Below, in pieces: positions 3,383-23,828 of a DNA stretch of 32,000 nucleotides. Under the pieces are notes generated by a model. The model searched no databases and was not told where the DNA came from. It worked only from the letters and a program-made list of their open reading frames with translations. Every line of letters begins with the position of its first letter. Position 1 is the first letter of the stretch. The stretch is from Cuniculiplasma divulgatum. Its GTDB lineage: Archaea > Thermoplasmatota > Thermoplasmata > Thermoplasmatales > Thermoplasmataceae. The translations under genes were made by a program, and so were the position numbers. Where the stretch lies: the NCBI RefSeq assembly GCF_900083515.1, contig NZ_LT671858.1, forward strand, positions 1 to 32,000, given 5' to 3'.

Positions 3383-6300
3383 TCATTTCTTCTTTTCACT
3401 CAGTTTTATCATCTCCATGATCTTACTAAGAGCAAGATCCATCTGTGGATCTTTTCCACTATGCCAATCTTCAGGTTTTATTTCCACTTCATATGTTGGA
3501 TCCGTTCCGTAATTTTCTACGCCAAACCCAACATCCCTGAACTTCATCCCAAATCTTGGCTGAGTCACCTGAGTACCATCTGCCAGCCTTCTTTCAGGGC
3601 TTATTCCAATTACTCCACCCCACGTTCTGGTACCGATTAGTGGCCCTAGGCTTAACAGCTTGAAAGAATGACTGAAAATATCCCCATCAGATCCTGCATT
3701 CTCGTTTGTAAGAGCTATCATTGGCCCCTCAACAGAATAGGATGGATATGGGGAATCCTGCCCTCTCCTTGGATGAGTAAGTGCTATTCTTTCCCGCATT
3801 AGCTTTTCAAGGACAAGTTGTGAAACATTGCCTCCCCCATTGAACCTGACGTCAACTATAAGACCAAATTTCTTGAATTCCCTTGTATAAAGCCTGTAAA
3901 ATTCTGCAAGTCCATCCAGCATCATGTTTGGGATATGAACATAACCTACCTCCCCTCCAGTTTTTTCATGTACCATCTTCCTGTTTTCCTCAACCCAGCT
4001 CCTGTATCTGAGATATCTATCATCTGGAATTGTCTTAACGTAGTTTGAAAATGCCTTCTTGTCCTGAGTTTTGACATCAATTCTGATTATCTCAGATGGT
4101 AGATTAAGTAATATCTCATCGATTGTTTTTCCATCGGGTCCAGGGGACTCTCCATTAATGGACACAATCTGGTCACCCTCCATGAATCCTCCCAGGAGCA
4201 GTGGACTTTTTTCATTCTCATTTGAAAGATCTCCATGATAAATTTTCTTTATGTAGTATTTCTTTCCTCTTAATTCAAAATCAGCCCCAAGATGTCCTAT
4301 GGGTATGGCATCAGAAGAAAGGAAGTCTCCACCTGTTTCATAGGAATGTGACGTTCTGAACTCTCCCTGCATCTCTCTCATTATTTCAGACAGTTCAAAC
4401 CTTGTGGTGATCTTGCTAACAAGGGGTTCATACTTCTCATATATCTGCCGTGCATTCTTTGTTGCAAACTCCTCCTTCCAGAAAAAGCTTGTTGCCAGCA
4501 GCCATGTCTCATTGAACATCTGCTTCCACTCTTCCAGAGGTTCTATCCTTATTTTCAGATCTTTGAGATGGATTTCCTTTTCCTCGTCAAAACCACTCAC
4601 CATTTCCTTCGCAACCTTTGCCTGTAGCTTGAAAACTTTATTTTTTTCCTTTCTGATTAACACAGATTTTTCATCCACTGAAACTCTGAAATCAAGCACC
4701 TTTTCCGCAACAGTCTTAGGCTTCTTTGTTTCAAAGCTGAAGAAAACAAGTTTACCAGCTCTCTGTCTCCCCGATGCGGCATTCTTTAGCAAGCCTTCGG
4801 CCCTGTATGAAAGGTATAGCAAGCCTCCTTTTATGGCCCTAAGAGAATTGAAGTTACCCGAATCTATGGGTAATGAATCGGAAAATGATCCTGCACTCTC
4901 TCTTTCAGATTTTAGTCTCATGGATTCTGGTATCCTGACTGTTGGTGAAAAGTCACCACCATCGATCTTCATATAATATATTCTAGTCATCAGGGGAAAT
5001 GAGTAGTTGAAAGTTGCCCTGTCCTCTACTGGATCAAAAGTCCTGTCAGAAAGATAATAAAGATAAGACCCAGAAGGATCAAAGGATGGTGAATAGTCAT
5101 TAGCCGTTCTTTCTGTTATTTCTTTCTTCTCCATCCTGTCAAGCACCACTGTTTTTACAATGGAACCGTCCCTCTGCCCAAAACCTCCTGTCATATATGG
5201 GAATGTATATGCAATTTTGCCTGAGTCATTTGACCATGCAACATCCCTTATTTTTCCTGCCTCACTTTCATCAATCAGATCACAAGACATATTCTCTATA
5301 TTCACCATATAAAGCTGAAACAGAATATTTGTAACCGCAATCTTCTTTCCATCAGGAGAAGGAAACGTGTTATCTATCAGTCCAATATTTCTTTTAAGCT
5401 GCGTGTGCTTCGAAATGTCTGAAATTTCAGATATGCATAGAAATTCCCCATCCTTATCCTGCCTTACATAGGAGACTCTTTTTCCATCAAGGAACTTCAT
5501 CAGTCTTACCCTTCCATGTGATTGAATTTGCAACTGTGGACTCATTTCTTCAGATGTTATGATGCCTTTACCCCGGAGGACAAATCCATATGTATCATCC
5601 TTTCCGTTCATTGTATATTCTTCCAGGTAGTTTGCGGTATCCGGGAACTTCGATGATGGAAACGTTATCCCTGAGTCCATTCTTACCTCAATTTTCTTTT
5701 CCTCCTTTTTTTCTGGATTTAATGTAAATAATTCGCCTCCCATGGAATACAACAGAACCTCACCATTCGATGAAAGATGCCTTGGATAATAGGTCTTGAA
5801 ATCAGAATGCTTCGTTAATTTTCCACCCTTTACATCAACGGAATATATCTGTCCATTGCCTTCATGATCGGAAACAAAAAACACTTTTTCACCATGGATA
5901 CATGGAGAGGAAACGTGTCCATCCAGGTCTACTATTTTGTTAAATTTTCCATTGAGCTTTCCTGACCAGATAACGCCTCTGGTTCCACCTTTATAACCCT
6001 TCCAGTGTGGCATATCGTATGTATATCTTCCTATTACCACATCATCTCCGTGGAATAATATGTGAGATCCTGGACCAAGATTCAGAGGGTTCAAATTTAG
6101 TGTTTCTGTATCAAGTTCATAGAAGAATGTAAGAGCTCCAAACGGTGACATTGCATCTGTTGAAATAATTGGTACATCTCCCTTCCAGCCTGCAACATCT
6201 GTAAACATCCTTCTTGGTACACTTTTGCCGTTAAGGAAAGTAACCCTCTTCACCATACCTGTTACCCTGTCATACATATACAGGTCTGCCAGTGATCCAT

Positions 6301-6490
6301 CCTTGCCCCTCATCGATCTGAAAATTATCTTATTTCTGTCTGGAGAAAATCTCGCATTATTTATTATACCTTCATTTGACACTACAACCCTTGAGCTTCC
6401 ATCTTTCAAATCTCCGACCCAGATTTTATCATTGGAAACAAAAAGAAATTCGTTACCCATGATATCTGGCCCATGCTTGTAAAATACCAT
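3383..6490 (-). CDS. tri: Tricorn protease (S41-family giant core protease: beta-propellers + PDZ + C-terminal serine peptidase domain)
   Basis: 1035 aa. The N-terminal stretch (INNARFSPD..KIIFRSMRG..ADLYMY..KRVTFLNGKS..RRMFTDVAGW..ISTDAMSPF, PHWKGYKGGTRG, YYPRHL) closely matches what I recall of Thermoplasma acidophilum tricorn. The length also fits. Confidence 0.93.
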   Translation of the reverse strand: MVFYKHGPDIMGNEFLFVSNDKIWVGDLKDGSSRVVVSNEGIINNARFSPDRNKIIFRSMRGKDGSLADLYMYDRVTGMVKRVTFLNGKSVPRRMFTDVAGWKGDVPIISTDAMSPFGALTFFYELDTETLNLNPLNLGPGSHILFHGDDVVIGRYTYDMPHWKGYKGGTRGVIWSGKLNGKFNKIVDLDGHVSSPCIHGEKVFFVSDHEGNGQIYSVDVKGGKLTKHSDFKTYYPRHLSSNGEVLLYSMGGELFTLNPEKKEEKKIEVRMDSGITFPSSKFPDTANYLEEYTMNGKDDTYGFVLRGKGIITSEEMSPQLQIQSHGRVRLMKFLDGKRVSYVRQDKDGEFLCISEISDISKHTQLKRNIGLIDNTFPSPDGKKIAVTNILFQLYMVNIENMSCDLIDESEAGKIRDVAWSNDSGKIAYTFPYMTGGFGQRDGSIVKTVVLDRMEKKEITERTANDYSPSFDPSGSYLYYLSDRTFDPVEDRATFNYSFPLMTRIYYMKIDGGDFSPTVRIPESMRLKSERESAGSFSDSLPIDSGNFNSLRAIKGGLLYLSYRAEGLLKNAASGRQRAGKLVFFSFETKKPKTVAEKVLDFRVSVDEKSVLIRKEKNKVFKLQAKVAKEMVSGFDEEKEIHLKDLKIRIEPLEEWKQMFNETWLLATSFFWKEEFATKNARQIYEKYEPLVSKITTRFELSEIMREMQGEFRTSHSYETGGDFLSSDAIPIGHLGADFELRGKKYYIKKIYHGDLSNENEKSPLLLGGFMEGDQIVSINGESPGPDGKTIDEILLNLPSEIIRIDVKTQDKKAFSNYVKTIPDDRYLRYRSWVEENRKMVHEKTGGEVGYVHIPNMMLDGLAEFYRLYTREFKKFGLIVDVRFNGGGNVSQLVLEKLMRERIALTHPRRGQDSPYPSYSVEGPMIALTNENAGSDGDIFSHSFKLLSLGPLIGTRTWGGVIGISPERRLADGTQVTQPRFGMKFRDVGFGVENYGTDPTYEVEIKPEDWHSGKDPQMDLALSKIMEMIKLSEKKK

Positions 6491-14503: not shown

Positions 14504-15034
14504 TTGGTAAGCGCTATAAAAAAAGATGTGAGGATAGGTTATGTCTATCTTCATCAGGATGATCCAGCAAAATCAACCATGAAGAAATTACAGAAATTCA
14601 AAATGGCCGAACAGATAAACAGAGACAGGATGGGTGGATATGTTGTATTGAGGTATGACGCAGATAGGACATTATTGCCAGATGACAGATCGGCCGTAGA
14701 AAGAAAAGGCATTTGCATCATAGAAGGTTCATGGAATCTTGGAGACCTTCTTGGCTCCTACAGAAAAGGAATTGAGAGAAAACTCCCTGTTCTGATGGCA
14801 GGCAATCCTGTTAATTTTGGAAAGTTCAATAAACTATCATCAGTCGAGGCGGTAGTAGGGGCTCTTTTTATAACGGGGCACATAGATCAGGCAAAAGTTA
14901 TGATAGGAAAATTCACATGGGGGCACACATTTATTGAACTGAACATGGAACTGTTTAAGTCCTATTCAGCGTGCCAGACCATGGAGGACCTTGAAAATGT
15001 TTATCTTGAATTTGACATAGATCCTAATATTTGA
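14504..15034 (+). CDS. tsr3: 16S rRNA aminocarboxypropyltransferase Tsr3 (DUF367)
   Basis: 176 aa. VYLHQDDPAKSTMKKL and LMAGNPVNFGKFNKLSSVEAVVGALFITGH match the Tsr3 family pattern. TTG start at 14504 (GTG 14528 is an alternative). TATA-like attattata at 14472-14480. Confidence 0.85.
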   Translation: MVSAIKKDVRIGYVYLHQDDPAKSTMKKLQKFKMAEQINRDRMGGYVVLRYDADRTLLPDDRSAVERKGICIIEGSWNLGDLLGSYRKGIERKLPVLMAGNPVNFGKFNKLSSVEAVVGALFITGHIDQAKVMIGKFTWGHTFIELNMELFKSYSACQTMEDLENVYLEFDIDPNI

Positions 15035-16415
15035 TCCATTTACTATTATCCAGTTTCCAGTTACCGTTTGTATATTCCGATATTATTGAATATATGCCTT
15101 CCCTATACTCCACAGGTATTTGTTCCATTATTTCAGTCTCTCCCGGAAGCAAATGGATTCCCGTAATTTGTGTATTCATGTCGTAGTCTCCGCTTTGAAG
15201 ACCGTCTGTTAAAAATTCCAGTTCATCGGGATCTAGTTTCATTTTTTCCTCCTTTACCATATCAAGGAGATTGGTCTTCAAAGGATAGTGTATTTCCTCA
15301 GGGTCACCGTGAGCGTATTCAATAAATAATCTAACACCCAGACATTTAGTGCATTTTCCACATGGATAAACATCACCATTCTGATACCTGCATGAGTGGC
15401 ATGATCTCTGTAGTAAGTAAAGATCATGATACCTGTTTACCAGTATATCTTCAACCACAGAGCCATATATATCGTAAAGGGCTGACCACAGTGTTATCCC
15501 GAAACCTTTTTCCTGTGTATATTTTGAAAATCTCCTCTGAAAATCAGGACTCTGATCGTACACGCCATAATAATGCTTTATTCCCCTGTATGGAGGCTCT
15601 TCTGCTGGATCGTCCATTTCATTTCCCATTATAATATCCTTTATCCCCTTTAACCTGAGAGAGGGAAATGTTGCGAACAGATAAACTGGAAATAGGAAAA
15701 GCTGTACAGGATAGTCATCAGCCCAGGAAAATGATACAACAGGATCAAGAATCGGCATCCTGTGATTCATGAAATTATAAAATCTATCAATGTTTGACCA
15801 GACCCTCGCACTCTCAGTGACCCTGCTGAGATAATCATGTGAATGCTTGGCTGCTTTCCAGTGACCTCCCGATTCATTGAAGAAATACGGCAGCGCATTT
15901 CCAGTAAGCTCCCTCATAATTCCATATGAGAGAAGGCTTTCCTTCCCTCCAGATAGCATTATTGCAGATCTGCCATTAGGGCTTCCCGAATAATTATCAA
16001 CATATTCAGACCTAAATGTGAGTTTTGTATTTCCATTTGCATTCTCCTGTGTAACTTCTTCATCTGCAGGTAAAAATTCGTTCCTGAAGAAAGGGTATCT
16101 TATCCTGCAGAGACGGTTTATAAAAACTTCAACATTATTGATTTTAACCATTTCCTCTATCATTTTTCTGTCCGACTCAGAAGTTGGGAAATCAAATATA
16201 ATTTCCCCGGTAAATAATGCATAGTTTATGACAGCTGTAGCGCCCATTAGACCTGCGAGATTTTCATTGAGTTCAACTTCATGATCATACTTATATTCAA
16301 GAGTGAATTTTTCTCTGTTATCCAGGGATATATTGATCTTTGCAAAATTTTTAGAAAAAGAATGCACACTTATCTCAAGTGTTTCAAAGCACCTGATCCT
16401 GTCGAGGAAAGGCAA
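15024..16415 (-). CDS. QueC-like PP-loop ATP pyrophosphatase with unrecognised N- and C-terminal extensions (function unknown)
   Basis: 463 aa. PP-loop SGGKES (res 155-160, nt 15936-15953). Cys knuckle SCHSC-x9-CGKCTKC (res 338-358, nt 15342-15404) resembles the QueC zinc site. TTG start 2 nt after the upstream stop. Confidence 0.6.
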   Translation of the reverse strand: MPFLDRIRCFETLEISVHSFSKNFAKINISLDNREKFTLEYKYDHEVELNENLAGLMGATAVINYALFTGEIIFDFPTSESDRKMIEEMVKINNVEVFINRLCRIRYPFFRNEFLPADEEVTQENANGNTKLTFRSEYVDNYSGSPNGRSAIMLSGGKESLLSYGIMRELTGNALPYFFNESGGHWKAAKHSHDYLSRVTESARVWSNIDRFYNFMNHRMPILDPVVSFSWADDYPVQLFLFPVYLFATFPSLRLKGIKDIIMGNEMDDPAEEPPYRGIKHYYGVYDQSPDFQRRFSKYTQEKGFGITLWSALYDIYGSVVEDILVNRYHDLYLLQRSCHSCRYQNGDVYPCGKCTKCLGVRLFIEYAHGDPEEIHYPLKTNLLDMVKEEKMKLDPDELEFLTDGLQSGDYDMNTQITGIHLLPGETEIMEQIPVEYREGIYSIISEYTNGNWKLDNSKWIKY

Positions 16416-16417
16416 GA

Positions 16418-17452
16418 CTAAAACCCGGAAACTATGATTTCTGCCATTCTTTTTGAATCGAACAGAGGATCAAAAGCAGGGAGGCCATACCTGCTTTCCA
16501 GGTCTTTCTTAGCATCACTAATCTCCTTTTCAGTCAGTCCTTCTCTGTTAATTGCTATGCCCATAACCTTTTTGTCTGATAACTCTTCAAGTATCCTGAT
16601 GAATTTTTCAACAGGTGGGATTTTAATTCCTGGAAAGCCATCATAATCAATTCTCGTCGGGGCGTGCTGTAATATTATGCCATCTGGCTTCCCTGCTGCT
16701 ATTATTTCAAAACTTCCTGGGTATGCAGGGTGCAGAACTGAGCCCTGTCCCTCAAGGAACATGAAATCTGGTGATTCCTTCTCCCATGCTTCAACTATGG
16801 CACTTTCTATCCCACCGGCAACGAAATCGTTTATCATTGAATCTATTACCACTGTATAGGGAAATCCCTGCATCCATGCTGTCTGGCCTGTACCTATCAT
16901 GACCGAACTCTTACCTAGCTTTTTCACCTCTTCGTTCAGATAAACTGCAGTAGTTCTCTTTCCTATGGCACTATCAGTACCCAGTACTGCAATCTTTTTA
17001 GATTTTACATCCCAGATCTTGCCTGTAAAAAAGTCTCTTCTCATCATAAACATTTTCCTAACATCAACTATCTCGGAACCAGATTGTTCACTGAGTTTTT
17101 TGAATTCTGGGTCATCTGAAATGAACTGGTGAAGTCCACTAACAACAGTCATCTTCTCCCTTATTGCCCTTGATACAAACGGTCTGAAATATTCAGGGAG
17201 AAAGCCTCCATCCGTTGCAACACCAACTATCAGGGTATCGGCACCCAGATCTATGGCTTCTCCCATTGTTGAAATGATCTTTATATCTGGTCTTGCCTTA
17301 GGTACAATCTCCTGTATGCTGGCTCCTGAATGGGTACTATCTATGACACCCAATATATCATAACGCTTTGAAAATCTGCACAGGCCATTTGCAGTTTTGC
17401 CATATGTAGACCCAAGGAAACCCTCGGCAAGTATAACCGCTTTATCCATCAA
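16418..17452 (-). CDS. DUF1611-family protein (DgcN-like; Rossmann-like N-domain + P-loop-like C-domain)
   Basis: N-terminus AVILAEGFLGSTYGKTANGLCRF and the glycine-rich loop VLGTDSAIGKRTTAVYL..IGTGQTAWMQG match the DUF1611 pattern. The probable start, ATG 17449, shares its A with the upstream TGA (TGATG). Confidence 0.75.
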   Translation of the reverse strand: MMDKAVILAEGFLGSTYGKTANGLCRFSKRYDILGVIDSTHSGASIQEIVPKARPDIKIISTMGEAIDLGADTLIVGVATDGGFLPEYFRPFVSRAIREKMTVVSGLHQFISDDPEFKKLSEQSGSEIVDVRKMFMMRRDFFTGKIWDVKSKKIAVLGTDSAIGKRTTAVYLNEEVKKLGKSSVMIGTGQTAWMQGFPYTVVIDSMINDFVAGGIESAIVEAWEKESPDFMFLEGQGSVLHPAYPGSFEIIAAGKPDGIILQHAPTRIDYDGFPGIKIPPVEKFIRILEELSDKKVMGIAINREGLTEKEISDAKKDLESRYGLPAFDPLFDSKRMAEIIVSGF

Positions 17453-18402
17453 TTTCCCCTTCCAGTCAATACGGCAACTACCTCTCCACTGACATTTCTG
17501 TTATTTAAGTTCTTATGGGCTGCTGCCAGTGCTGATGCAGAGGCTGGAAGAACCTGAATAGATTGTTGATTCTCTATCATCCTTGAAAACTTCACCATTT
17601 CCTGATCGTTAACTCCTATTGCAACGCCTTTACTTTCATAAATTGCGTTAAGTGCTTTTTGGCCATCCATGGCACGGAATGAAACCAGTGGTTCGTTGGT
17701 TTCTGTCTCAATTATTGTTGATGGTTCCAGTTCCTGAATCTTCCTGAATCCGTGTTTCCATGAATACACGATAGGATTACCAAGAGATGTAGAAGAAGCA
17801 ATGAATTTTGGGATATTACTGATCATTCCCCTCAGGTACAGTTTTTTGAAACCGCTGAATATCCCGGCAAGTGTTGTTCCATTACCCACTGGCGCCGCCA
17901 AATAGGCTGGTGAATGTCCTAGCTGCTGTACTATCTCATTTGCAATACTCTCGTAACCAAGTATATCAACTATTGAATTTACCGAGCCAGGACTGCAGTC
18001 ATACCAGTTCTCATCCCTCGATTTGTCCTTGATATATTCAACAAGATCCTCATATTTCATGTTTTTCTGTATGATCTTTGCTCCGTTTCCATAAATTTCA
18101 TCACTTCTTGCGTTAGTGTAGAAGGATGGAATTGCAACAACGGATTTGATTTTATATGCAGAAGCAAAATAAGATACAGATGCCCCGTAATTACCACATG
18201 TTGCAACTGCGATGGTATCATAACCTAATTCTATAGCCCTCCTAACATGAAGGCTTGAGATCCTGTCCTTTTGGGTTCCTGTAATGCTGGCACCTTCAAA
18301 CTTAAAAAAAATCTTATTCATTTTCAGGAACCTCTCTATATTTCTGGCCCTGAAAAGAGGTGTCAATCCAGGAGGCTTTTCTTCCTCTGTAATCTGTTCC
18401 AT
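17449..18402 (-). CDS. Fold-type-II PLP-dependent enzyme (threonine synthase / Trp-synthase-beta superfamily), specificity unknown
   Basis: 317 aa. Schiff-base lysine motif SITGTQKDR (K45), glycine loop PVGNGTTLAG, and the size typical of short PALP enzymes. Confidence 0.75.
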   Translation of the reverse strand: MEQITEEEKPPGLTPLFRARNIERFLKMNKIFFKFEGASITGTQKDRISSLHVRRAIELGYDTIAVATCGNYGASVSYFASAYKIKSVVAIPSFYTNARSDEIYGNGAKIIQKNMKYEDLVEYIKDKSRDENWYDCSPGSVNSIVDILGYESIANEIVQQLGHSPAYLAAPVGNGTTLAGIFSGFKKLYLRGMISNIPKFIASSTSLGNPIVYSWKHGFRKIQELEPSTIIETETNEPLVSFRAMDGQKALNAIYESKGVAIGVNDQEMVKFSRMIENQQSIQVLPASASALAAAHKNLNNRNVSGEVVAVLTGRGN

Positions 18403-18448
18403 TATTTAATACACCGACCACTCGGTCATGTAATGATGAGTACATTCT

Positions 18449-18456
18449 ATTTAAAT
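18449..18456 (-). promoter_or_regulatory. TATA-like box upstream of the PLP/DUF1611/PP-loop operon
   Basis: The palindromic atttaaat is centred 23.5 nt upstream of a mini-ORF ATG at 18429, not of the main ATG at 18402. Confidence 0.3.
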
Positions 18457-18649
18457 ATATCTTATAAAAATTTCAATATATCTATAATCAGCAAATTGGC
18501 TGTTTTCCAAGAGTTTTAAATATCTATTCATATAAATGTATAAATAATTATATTGTATATTTTATTTTTAAAATTCTTAAATATTTTTGTACTATTCAGG
18601 TCTAAAAGATATTTCTAATAAACCAAAAAAATGAGAGGATTGGAGATGT

Positions 18650-22838: not shown

Positions 22839-23828
22839 CTAACCTATATATATGTGGAAATGGGTGTGGAATATAAATCCTATTGTGTAGGTGATTGCCG
22901 CGGCTAGCAGTGACAAAATGGCTGCCCTGCTTGAGGATTTCAATATAGAGATGTTCAGTGCTATTGCTATAATGGAATTGCTTACTGCCTGAACTGCAGC
23001 CACAAGTATAACGGCAATGATCAGTGAAAGTATGCCAAGAGGAAAGAGGAAAGGAATTATTGGAAAAGCAGCTCCTGCTATATAGGAAAGACCGGTTGTT
23101 CCCGCTGAAACCTTTGTACGGTTCTCTTCATTTTCAATTTCAGTCTTCATCTTATGAGTGCTAGTGTTTGTAATGAGACTTTCCCTTTTAATATTCCTTA
23201 TCCTGTACTCAATTTCGGAGGATTTTGAAAGATATGCTCCAAGGGTCATGCTTATGGTTCCACCGACTCCTATAACAAGTCCACTCATCGCAATTATGAA
23301 ATTGTTACTTATAATTGCAGTTAATCCTGCGATTGCCGCCAGAACCTCAACGAGTCCATCACTCATACCATATATGAAAGCCTGTATTCTATCAAGATAG
23401 GCTTCCCTGTTAATCCCCATCTGTTCAAAGACGTTTTCATGACCTATCTCATCATTTATAATAGATTTTAATGCATTTACTTCATCGGTATCCTTCATAT
23501 TCTTTAAAAAATCCCTGTATTTTCTAATACTTTCAACCTCTCCTCTTTCCAGAAGATTGACAGTCAGGTTATTACCCAAGATTCTGGTAAGGAATAGGAG
23601 AAAGAAAATCTTCACACCTCTAGGCTTGATCTCATTTTTTTCAGAGCCTAACTTTATGAGTCTTTTCATCCAGAACTCAGAATGGGACTCCTCCATTTCA
23701 GCGAGATAATCAAGTTTCTCTTTTAAAACTTTATTTCGGGATCTTTTGGCAAGTTTTCTATAGAACTCTCTGTCTGTGATCTCATCTCTATAGAATTCTG
23801 AAACCAGTTTCTCTTCTTCTCCCATCAT
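22839..23828 (-). CDS. VIT1/CCC1-family iron transporter with N-terminal ferritin-like (erythrin) domain
   Basis: 329 aa. Two ExxH di-iron motifs (EMEESH, NDEIGHE) in the N-terminal helical domain. VIT1 signature FIYGMSDGLVEVLAAIAGL followed by TM helices. Confidence 0.8.
   Translation of the reverse strand: MMGEEEKLVSEFYRDEITDREFYRKLAKRSRNKVLKEKLDYLAEMEESHSEFWMKRLIKLGSEKNEIKPRGVKIFFLLFLTRILGNNLTVNLLERGEVESIRKYRDFLKNMKDTDEVNALKSIINDEIGHENVFEQMGINREAYLDRIQAFIYGMSDGLVEVLAAIAGLTAIISNNFIIAMSGLVIGVGGTISMTLGAYLSKSSEIEYRIRNIKRESLITNTSTHKMKTEIENEENRTKVSAGTTGLSYIAGAAFPIIPFLFPLGILSLIIAVILVAAVQAVSNSIIAIALNISILKSSSRAAILSLLAAAITYTIGFIFHTHFHIYIG

Follow-up and report, generated by a model that had tools for sequence, protein, structure and literature searches.

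What do three closely packed genes of the archaeon Cuniculiplasma divulgatum make? The genes lie on the minus strand of a 32,000-nt stretch of its genome (NZ_LT671858.1, positions 1 to 32,000, forward strand), which we refer to as the window, and they encode a fold-type-II pyridoxal phosphate (PLP) enzyme, a DUF1611 protein and a third protein that we call X (Table 1). An initial annotation of this DNA had read the three open reading frames (ORFs) as a compact, amino-acid-derived module that maps to no described pathway, and the coordinates, junctions, 247-bp upstream spacer and motifs on which it relied were all confirmed in the sequence. At the first junction, TGATG (17451-17447) contains both the TGA of the PLP gene (17451-17449) and the ATG of the DUF1611 gene (17449-17447), the A being common to both. 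At the second, the DUF1611 TAG (16420-16418) is followed after a 2-nt gap by the TTG start of X (16415-16413). The DUF1611 ORF has 343 aa from the ATG at 17449, or 344 aa if counted from 17452. The TTG start of X is supported because its homologues start at the equivalent residue, the N-termini of 42 of them being in agreement. We found that the three genes are one operon, and that its structure is conserved; the multi-enzyme module that it encodes would act on a small amino-acid-type substrate. None of the pathways in the literature searched matches the trio, and neither the cassette nor the X family is described there. Together with the conserved neighbourhood set out below, this supports the interpretation of the locus as a compact amino-acid-derived module, and the cassette indicates a pathway for amino acids or peptides that has yet to be described.

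The conservation of the cassette was assessed in a scan that used one genome per species. Relatives of X were present in 289 species-level genomes, and the best 80 loci were almost all from Thermoplasmata. We examined 85 Thermoplasmata loci, including those of Thermoplasma volcanium, Picrophilus and Ferroplasma/Acidiplasma, and in 83 of them DUF1611 immediately precedes X, whereas in the remaining two a contig end cuts the locus. A PLP gene lay upstream of DUF1611 in 75 of the 85, and in all 75 informative loci the order PLP, DUF1611, X was colinear. Spacing was tight as well, with a gap of 10 nt or less between the PLP and DUF1611 genes (75/75) and of 20 nt or less between DUF1611 and X (72/83). 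The pair DUF1611-X was kept without an adjacent PLP gene in four loci, two of which are labelled Aciduliprofundum or Methanobacteriota. That the trio is kept as neighbours, a point that the initial annotation had put up for testing, thus holds in the Thermoplasmata loci, and it holds also in the bacterial operons described below. The sole disruptions of the tight coupling were a 4.2-kb insertion that splits DUF1611 from X in one Thermoplasmata metagenome-assembled genome (L025 3819-7985), with five same-strand ORFs for which Pfam gave no match, and a DUF1611-X gap of about 640 bp in another (L027 7362-8000).

The surroundings of the archaeal cassette are also recurrent. The gene for D-aminoacyl-tRNA deacylase, dtdA, is usually next door: in 56/65 loci it lies before the cassette in the same orientation, and tsr3 converges on the cassette in 66/75. 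Since this synteny is limited to one class, it may merely be inherited. Transporter genes occur near the cassette in independent lineages (major facilitator superfamily in T. volcanium and bacteria, EamA in L082, YitT-like in bacteria), which fits a small-molecule substrate.

An exhaustive profile search with X returned 422 representative proteins at E <= 0.001. Among them were natural fusions of DUF1611 to X (P0135), of X to a creatininase-type amidohydrolase (P0134, P0139, P0157 and P0161) and of X to a methyltransferase (P0137), and the contigs that carry fusions had the gene order PALP, DUF1611, X(-)creatininase, MR_MLE. A metagenome scan found at least 520 stretches with a relative of an X-creatininase query. 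In the 80 best of these loci X was without exception fused to creatininase or directly followed by it (80/80), and in the informative bacterial loci DUF1611 lay upstream of X (60/62), the PLP gene upstream (54/55) and MR_MLE downstream (61/62), a frequency of 97-98% for each neighbour. One locus, L157 (6897-10385), encodes DUF1611, X and creatininase as a triple fusion in a single ORF of 1162 aa. The enolase-type MR_MLE protein is nearest to Thermotoga L-Ala-D/L-Glu epimerase (230 bits) and to DgcA (151 bits), both below cutoff, and the creatininase domain is nearest to the peptidyl-dipeptidase MftE (161 bits against a cutoff of 172). The carrier lineage is judged to be bacterial by its sigma-54 activator, GroEL and DksA-like neighbours, and is apparently Aminicenantes-like, from one named member, Candidatus Aminicenantes. 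Many of these loci come from saline or sediment metagenomes, and the operons are flanked by peptide- and amino-acid-type enzymes and transporters. Neither the window nor the 8 kb to each side of the cassette in the 85 Thermoplasmata loci contained a creatininase or MR_MLE gene. As the bacterial module has up to five domains and Thermoplasmata lack the extra two, the archaeal trio is a minimal form of it, and DUF1611-X is the most constant core of the module.

Some bacterial loci (L129, L134 and L158; e.g. L134 2387-3298) encode an extra protein of 303-329 aa with weak ATP-grasp similarity (PF14397, E 2e-4), usually between X-creatininase and MR_MLE. At L110 an ORF related to this insert follows X, and no MR_MLE match was found there.

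The bacterial operons bear on the alternative that the initial annotation had drawn from the neighbours tsr3, dtdA and valS, namely that the trio is an RNA-base modification set. tRNA is a target of many PP-loop enzymes, dtdA and tsr3 flank the cassette in most Thermoplasmata loci, and KsgA and Pus10 are encoded near it in L082. The analysis lent this idea no support, however. The tsr3/dtdA synteny is confined to Thermoplasmata and absent from the bacterial operons, where the partners are instead a dipeptide-epimerase-like enzyme and an amidohydrolase, Pfam detected no RNA-binding domain, and the nearest homologue of X, MurL, acts on a peptide. We regard an RNA-modifying role as highly improbable.

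Protein X had no match in Pfam (E <= 1, apart from DUF6395 at 0.36), NCBIfam or PADLOC, and none to PF06508; PDB sequences gave generic PP-loop matches only, and NCBI names the protein 'metal-binding protein' or 'hypothetical'. X stands outside functionally characterised families, with a remote relation to MurL alone; membership of such a family would have refuted the initial reading. Across 43 homologues, S155, G157, K158, E159 and S160 of the PP-loop were invariant and G156 nearly so, as were cysteines C339, C352, C355 and C358, with C342 again nearly so. The PP-loop, SGGKES in the window protein, reads SGGKDS in bacterial relatives (Glu for Asp in the window protein), and the conserved motifs of the family are SGGK(E/D)SLL, NESGxHW, WxNxDR, GNExDD, YDQS, QRSCHSC and PCGxCxKC. 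An AlphaFold2 model made with 43 homologues (predicted local distance difference test, pLDDT, 93; predicted TM-score, pTM, 0.91) comprises an N-terminal domain (~1-140), a PP-loop core (~149-360) with a multi-Cys knuckle at its end, and a C-terminal domain (360-463). Its best PDB matches in Foldseek were QatC (E 1e-6), Cap9 and QueC, each at probability 1.0. The QueC-type hits 2pg3, 3bl5 and 9nto_B (probability 1.0) had TM-scores on target of 0.64-0.71, and QatC, the top match, was aligned over 492 columns with TM 0.39-0.41.

The PF06508-like core that had been predicted for X was thus found in its fold, with QueC at Foldseek probability 1.0, and not in its sequence, which gave no PF06508 match and lacks the QueC substrate motifs. 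QueC carries a Zn motif C(x)8CxxCxxC, and the E. coli enzyme has the essential motifs YxQxHxxE, VPxRN and YPDC (PMC13329287). The cysteine cluster of X has the position of this Zn motif, with a spacing of x9 rather than x8 and an extra CxxC in front, and it matches the QatC Zn site (C334/C354/C357/C360) in position. At the sites of the QueC substrate motifs the X consensus reads FFNESGGHW, GNEFDDP and YDQS, and YxQxHxxE, VPxRN and YPDC are all absent. The structural model therefore suggests a QueC/QatC-like PP-loop ATP-pyrophosphatase fold, a likeness that holds at the level of the fold and not of the QueC catalytic motifs. X has in common with QueC, Cap9 and QatC (the PF06508 superfamily) the PP-loop and the C-terminal multi-Cys knuckle; unlike them it has neither a 7-deazaguanine nor a defence context. 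In these enzymes adenylation of a carboxylate is followed by attack of an amine (PMC13279940, PMC13329287), and by analogy X may be classed as a PP-loop adenylating enzyme for amino-acid or peptide carboxylates. A 2026 survey of PF06508 does not cover the X family (PMC13329287). We also considered X as a replacement for canonical QueC and rejected this, given the missing substrate motifs and operon partners that are amino-acid-type enzymes.

Two observations concern the annotation and the variety of the X family. P0394, P0406, P0414 and other X-creatininase fusions carry the automatic JGI label 'creatinine amidohydrolase .../7-cyano-7-deazaguanine synthase', and because the QueC substrate motifs are absent the QueC-based part of the name is probably a misannotation. 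The X or X-creatininase proteins P0157, P0161 and P0162 (L089 245-2725) have degenerate PP-loops (VDGTRES, VSGSAES and VESGTND) with the other fold motifs kept; judging by these sequences, they may be inactive or repurposed paralogues.

The structural matches raise two further explanations. In the first, X would modify a protein terminus as QatC and Cap9 do, its target being DUF1611 or the PLP enzyme, in a regulatory or defence-like conjugation. Over its full length X has no better structural match than QatC, whose division into N extension, QueC core and C extension recurs in X (PMC13279940); the fusions, moreover, couple X physically to its partners. Against this, none of the three window proteins matched PADLOC, and QatA, QatB, QatD and the genes of cyclic oligonucleotide-based antiphage signalling (CBASS), with a CD-NTase (cGAS/DncV-like nucleotidyltransferase) and Cap10 partners, are absent; the neighbours are the PLP enzyme, DUF1611, dtdA and tsr3, and the partners of X are enzymes of amino-acid chemistry. 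The cassette is also single-copy, near-universal and in a housekeeping context within one archaeal order, unlike patchy defence islands. Given the lack of defence partners and this distribution we rejected a defence system, and give terminus modification as a whole only a slight chance.

In the second, X would insert sulfur as a thiolase of the TtuA/NcsA/YcfA type with an Fe-S cysteine cluster, the PLP enzyme would mobilise or accept sulfur, and the product would be a thiocarboxylate, a thioamide or a thiolated metabolite. A PLP enzyme is the partner of YcfA when thioamides are formed. NcsA, TtuA, LarE and YcfA are among the lower-ranked structural matches of X, whose GNExDD aligns with GHNLDD of TtuA and which has five conserved cysteines; the fold-type-II relatives of the PLP enzyme include cysteine and cysteate synthases (NCBIfam comparison). 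The cysteine spacing, however, is that of the QueC/QatC Zn site and not of the three-Cys Fe-S sites of TtuA or LarE (PMC13329287, PMC13279940), and enzymes of the Zn type rank top structurally. There is no linked gene for a sulfur carrier (ThiS/TtuB-like) or a desulfurase, and DUF1611, creatininase and MR_MLE would have no obvious role. Sulfur insertion consequently seems improbable to us.

Profile comparisons indicate that the nearest characterised homologue of X is MurL rather than QueC. MurL, of about 450 aa, epimerises a C-terminal L-Glu, needs ATP and Mg, gives AMP and has been described as being without known conserved domains (PMC5808125, PMC8788868); its gene adjoins that of MurD2, the ligase by which L-Glu is joined in amide linkage (PMC8788868). 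X was compared with MurL indirectly, through the NCBIfam model NF041275 and a bridging family, Y. MurL was the sole characterised family repeatedly matched by the X part: it was matched by 10 of 29 diverse X-family members (best E 2e-7), and by the X-creatininase fusion P0134 at E 4.9e-6. The window X protein itself did not match the MurL model, and the similarity of X and Y to MurL reaches at most 38 bits against the 700-bit equivalog cutoff of NF041275. The link is statistically clear, if remote; as the scores are far below the cutoff, X is a distant relative and not an orthologue of MurL.

Family Y (~450 aa), from DPANN archaea and bacteria of the candidate phyla radiation, matched MurL at E-values down to 7e-10 and over up to 334 residues, and it matched the X profile with an hhalign probability of 100% (E 5e-42). 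The motifs S-x-G-K-D/E-S-L-L, GNE, DQS, RYP..Q.SC and C..C.KC are common to Y and X. The AlphaFold model of a family Y member (P0251, A7; mb1ab0e142571) had a pLDDT of 91.6 and its top hits were QatC, QueC and Cap9. Because family Y models as a QueC/QatC-like fold, MurL itself is probably a member of the PP-loop ATP-pyrophosphatase superfamily. Two of the three contexts that were informative for family Y (L171 5722-8217; L174 5001-8456) have one or two Ddl-like ATP-grasp ligases next to it, which suggests by analogy that in reduced genomes such pairs are ligase-plus-epimerase systems resembling MurD2/MurL. The pairs MurD2 and MurL, Ddl-like ligase and Y, and DUF1611 and X suggest a recurrent arrangement, in which an enzyme that forms an amide on an amino-acid nitrogen is followed by a MurL-like enzyme.

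Like MurL, whose N-acylated amino-acid substrate is attacked at the free alpha-carboxylate of its C-terminal residue, X would act on such a carboxylate, and it stands beside DUF1611 as MurL stands beside MurD2. Unlike MurL it has no peptidoglycan context, since Thermoplasmatales have no cell wall. Neither a Mur ligase nor cell-wall genes lie beside X; its upstream gene is DUF1611, and with the PLP enzyme this takes the place of a Mur ligase as partner.

The Pfam families expected for the two upstream proteins were both recovered. The DUF1611 protein matched PF07755 (E 1e-61) and PF17396 (E 7e-25), and has a Rossmann-like N domain and a P-loop C domain, as in DgcN; among PDB sequences it matched 2g0t (E 5e-54) and 7xrj (E 8e-38). 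DgcN, an N-acetyltransferase for D-Glu according to the NCBIfam name NF041892, is the sole characterised DUF1611 member. The window protein scored 161.8 bits on this model and its bacterial orthologue 152.4 bits, both below the cutoff of 480. The P-loop of the DUF1611 protein gives weak matches to the Mur ligase MurE (E 0.02-0.2), so that ATP-dependent ligation is conceivable beside the default acyl-CoA-dependent transfer. A literature search on DUF1611, PF07755, COG3367, DgcN/DgcA and creatininase with dipeptide epimerase found nothing relevant.

DgcN is paired with the racemase DgcA (NF042940), and the initial annotation had stated that no DgcA is present. This is right for the window, and no DgcA-type enolase racemase was found within 8 kb on either side of the 85 Thermoplasmata cassettes; the bacterial cassette, however, does have a DgcA-type enolase partner (151-154 bits on the DgcA model), accompanied by the creatininase-type amidohydrolase. 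The likeness to DgcN-DgcA extends from the DUF1611 architecture to the logic of the pathway, in which N-acylation comes first and inversion of a stereocentre next. It has limits: the cassette proteins are far under the equivalog cutoffs (162 vs 480 and ~151 vs 400), the MR_MLE partner is nearer to the Thermotoga epimerase, and the Dgc pathway includes nothing that corresponds to the PLP enzyme, X or creatininase. A second comparison is with the N-succinyl-amino-acid racemase route, which converts D- to L-amino acids by means of an acyltransferase, an enolase-type racemase and a deacylase. The bacterial five-domain cassette likewise combines a candidate N-acyltransferase (DUF1611), an enolase-type epimerase and an amidohydrolase (creatininase), but the acyltransferase and hydrolase families are unrelated and the cassette adds an ATP-dependent and a PLP enzyme; the archaeal cassette lacks racemase and hydrolase.

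The PLP enzyme matched PF00291 (E 1e-49) and met the cutoff of NF004996 (PRK06381), with 427.8 bits against 266; that of the bacterial cassette belongs to the same clade (443.4 bits). This model is named 'threonine synthase', a name behind which we know of no experiment. On the canonical threonine synthase model TIGR00260 (thrC) the window enzyme scored 78.1 bits, below the cutoff of 167. The ThrC segment NSVNPxR(L/I)EGQKT is substituted by GSVNSIVDILGYES, and STGNT of ThrC is TCGNY; this argument rests on one motif comparison, no paper having been found that confirms the phosphate-binding residues of ThrC. In common with ThrC the enzyme has the fold-type-II PLP fold and the lysine motif, and its closest solved structure is 1uim (E 2e-25). 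Judged by sequence, then, it is threonine-synthase-like and not a canonical ThrC, and the strictness with which it shares an operon with DUF1611 and X suggests that it catalyses a different reaction. That it supplies or consumes the amino acid of the pathway is a guess.

Considering the three proteins together, the model that we favour, as a possibility and with reserve, is that DUF1611 N-acylates an amino acid, that X adenylates and epimerises the product in the manner of MurL, and that the PLP enzyme feeds or drains the pathway. The PRK06381-type enzyme would make the substrate or use the product amino acid. DUF1611 would form an amide on the alpha-amino group to give an N-acyl amino acid, and X, with ATP, would adenylate its free alpha-carboxylate. 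The acyl-adenylate or oxazolone so formed would, as is proposed for MurL, epimerise and be released, amounting to a one-way, ATP-driven stereoinversion. The creatininase-type hydrolase that is fused to X in bacteria would take off the acyl group or open a cyclic intermediate, and the part of the enolase-type enzyme would be to equilibrate the stereocentre of a related N-acyl compound or dipeptide. We infer each of these chemical steps, as well as the substrate and the direction of the pathway, from homology and gene context. The theme of amino acids and their stereochemistry speaks for this model, with a D-Glu acetyltransferase (DgcN) as the relative of DUF1611, an MR_MLE enzyme, an MftE-like creatininase and dtdA upstream. 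A more specific form of it, in which the cassette is an ATP-driven route from an L-amino acid to a D-amino acid or N-acyl-D-amino acid by way of a MurL-like PP-loop enzyme, we consider rather unlikely.

Several points weigh against epimerisation by X. The resemblance to MurL is a distant one (at most 38 bits against 700) and the window X does not match the model. The bacterial cassette already has an enolase-type epimerase, beside which a second one looks redundant, and this favours X as a ligase or amidating enzyme; and as Thermoplasmata have neither this epimerase nor the amidohydrolase within 8 kb, the archaeal and bacterial pathways may differ. The DUF1611 protein is far below the DgcN cutoff and its MurE-like P-loop matches allow an ATP-dependent reaction, the role given to the PLP enzyme is a guess, and the dtdA synteny may reflect shared ancestry alone. 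To our knowledge, neither the X family nor the PRK06381 clade has a biochemically characterised member.

Another explanation is that X is not an epimerase but an amide-forming ligase or amidotransferase of the QueC, Cap9 or asparagine-synthetase type. The adenylated carboxylate would be joined to another amine or to ammonia, which the PLP enzyme might release as an ammonia-lyase, and the product would be an amino-acid amide, dipeptide or nitrile, e.g. a compatible-solute-like or signalling molecule. The synthesis of N-acetylglutaminylglutamine amide (NAGGN) is a precedent, since it pairs an N-acetyltransferase/ligase with a PP-loop amidotransferase, and the saline or sediment origin of many bacterial loci is counted in its favour. 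The PLP protein has an ATCGNYG loop like that of dehydratases and ammonia-lyases, without the ThrC motif; the fused creatininase-type amidohydrolase implies amide chemistry; and with an enolase-type epimerase in the bacterial cassette X need not epimerise. The top structural matches, QatC, Cap9 and QueC, all form amides from adenylated carboxylates (PMC13279940, PMC13329287). However, the QueC substrate motifs YxQxHxxE, VPxRN and YPDC are absent from X, there is no glutaminase partner, and MurL, an epimerase, is the one characterised enzyme to which X can be tied at the sequence level. We judge an amide-forming X to be unlikely, but give it an appreciable chance. Other mechanisms, or genes that are merely syntenic, are likewise given a minor share. 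As to the general position of the system, the cassette proteins fall outside each of the equivalogs MurL, DgcN, DgcA, QueC and ThrC against which they were tested, and the system resembles MurD2/MurL and DgcN/DgcA in logic.

Putative control elements were found in the spacer upstream of the PLP gene, which is the only sizeable non-coding gap adjoining the three genes. An alignment of the upstream regions of five related genomes showed that the TATA-box-like element ATATTTAAATA is nearly invariant, and from its sequence this is a putative promoter element. A palindrome, GACCGA-nnn-GGTCGGTG, lies 20 nt downstream of ATATTTAAATA and directly before the start codon. In four related genomes its arms were kept with a variable loop (L006-L008) or were partly kept (L010). 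As RNA it folds weakly better than shuffled sequences (z = -1.1, not significant), and a protein-binding site is therefore at least as likely as a structured leader; the palindrome could be an operator for some regulator or a leader hairpin. Rfam scans of the window and eight bacterial loci gave no riboswitch that would name the metabolite.

At the other end of the operon, X and the plus-strand gene tsr3 (14504-15034) converge, and their 3' ends overlap by 11 nt (15024-15034). Elsewhere in the window are genes for a tricorn protease, a pro-kumamolisin (sedolisin) activation-domain protein and a rubrerythrin-VIT1 fusion, which are typical of peptide-scavenging, iron-exposed Thermoplasmatales.

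Table 1. Positions of the cassette genes, their motifs, the upstream elements and other genes of the window
Feature	Position	Strand	Details
PLP enzyme, fold-type-II, PRK06381 clade, 317 aa	17449..18402	-	PF00291, NF004996
DUF1611 protein, DgcN paralogue, 343 aa	16418..17449	-	PF17396 + PF07755
Protein X, PP-loop ATP-pyrophosphatase (predicted), no family, 463 aa	15024..16415	-	AlphaFold2 model, Foldseek
Lys45 of PLP enzyme	18268-18270	-	motif SITGTQKDR, residues 39-47
DUF1611 P-loop GTDSAIGKRTT, residues 157-167	16949-16981	-	motif
X PP-loop SGGKES, residues 155-160	15936..15953	-	homologue alignment; aligns with TtuA/MnmA PP-loop
X cysteine cluster C339-x2-C342-x9-C352-x2-C355-x2-C358, presumed Zn-binding	15342..15401	-	homologue alignment
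Upstream spacer, 247 bp, presumed cassette promoter region	18403..18649	-	G+C 22% vs 38.6% for window
TATA-box-like element ATATTTAAATA	18448..18458	-	~46-56 nt upstream of ATG
Palindrome GACCGA-GTG-GTCGGTG	18412..18427	-	between TATA-like box and start codon
Tricorn protease	3383-6490		
Pro-kumamolisin protein, 1128 aa	6626-10012		
Rubrerythrin-VIT1 fusion	22839-23828		

These results bring to light a large family, that of X, for which the searched copies of Pfam and NCBIfam contain no model; relatives of X occur in 289 species-level genomes, and relatives of the X-creatininase query in at least 520 metagenome stretches. By way of family Y, MurL appears to gain a fold assignment, QueC/QatC-like PP-loop, and a set of relatives. 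An uncharacterised operon, conserved in the sampled Thermoplasmata and in apparently Aminicenantes-like bacteria, is set within amino-acid or peptide stereochemistry, and its natural fusions and five-domain bacterial version make the pathway open to reconstitution in vitro. If the L-to-D route is true, the MurL-like enzymes would make up a broad superfamily that epimerises C-terminal residues and is paired with enzymes of amide formation, and a D-amino acid or a derivative of one would have an unrecognised physiological role in the wall-less Thermoplasmata.

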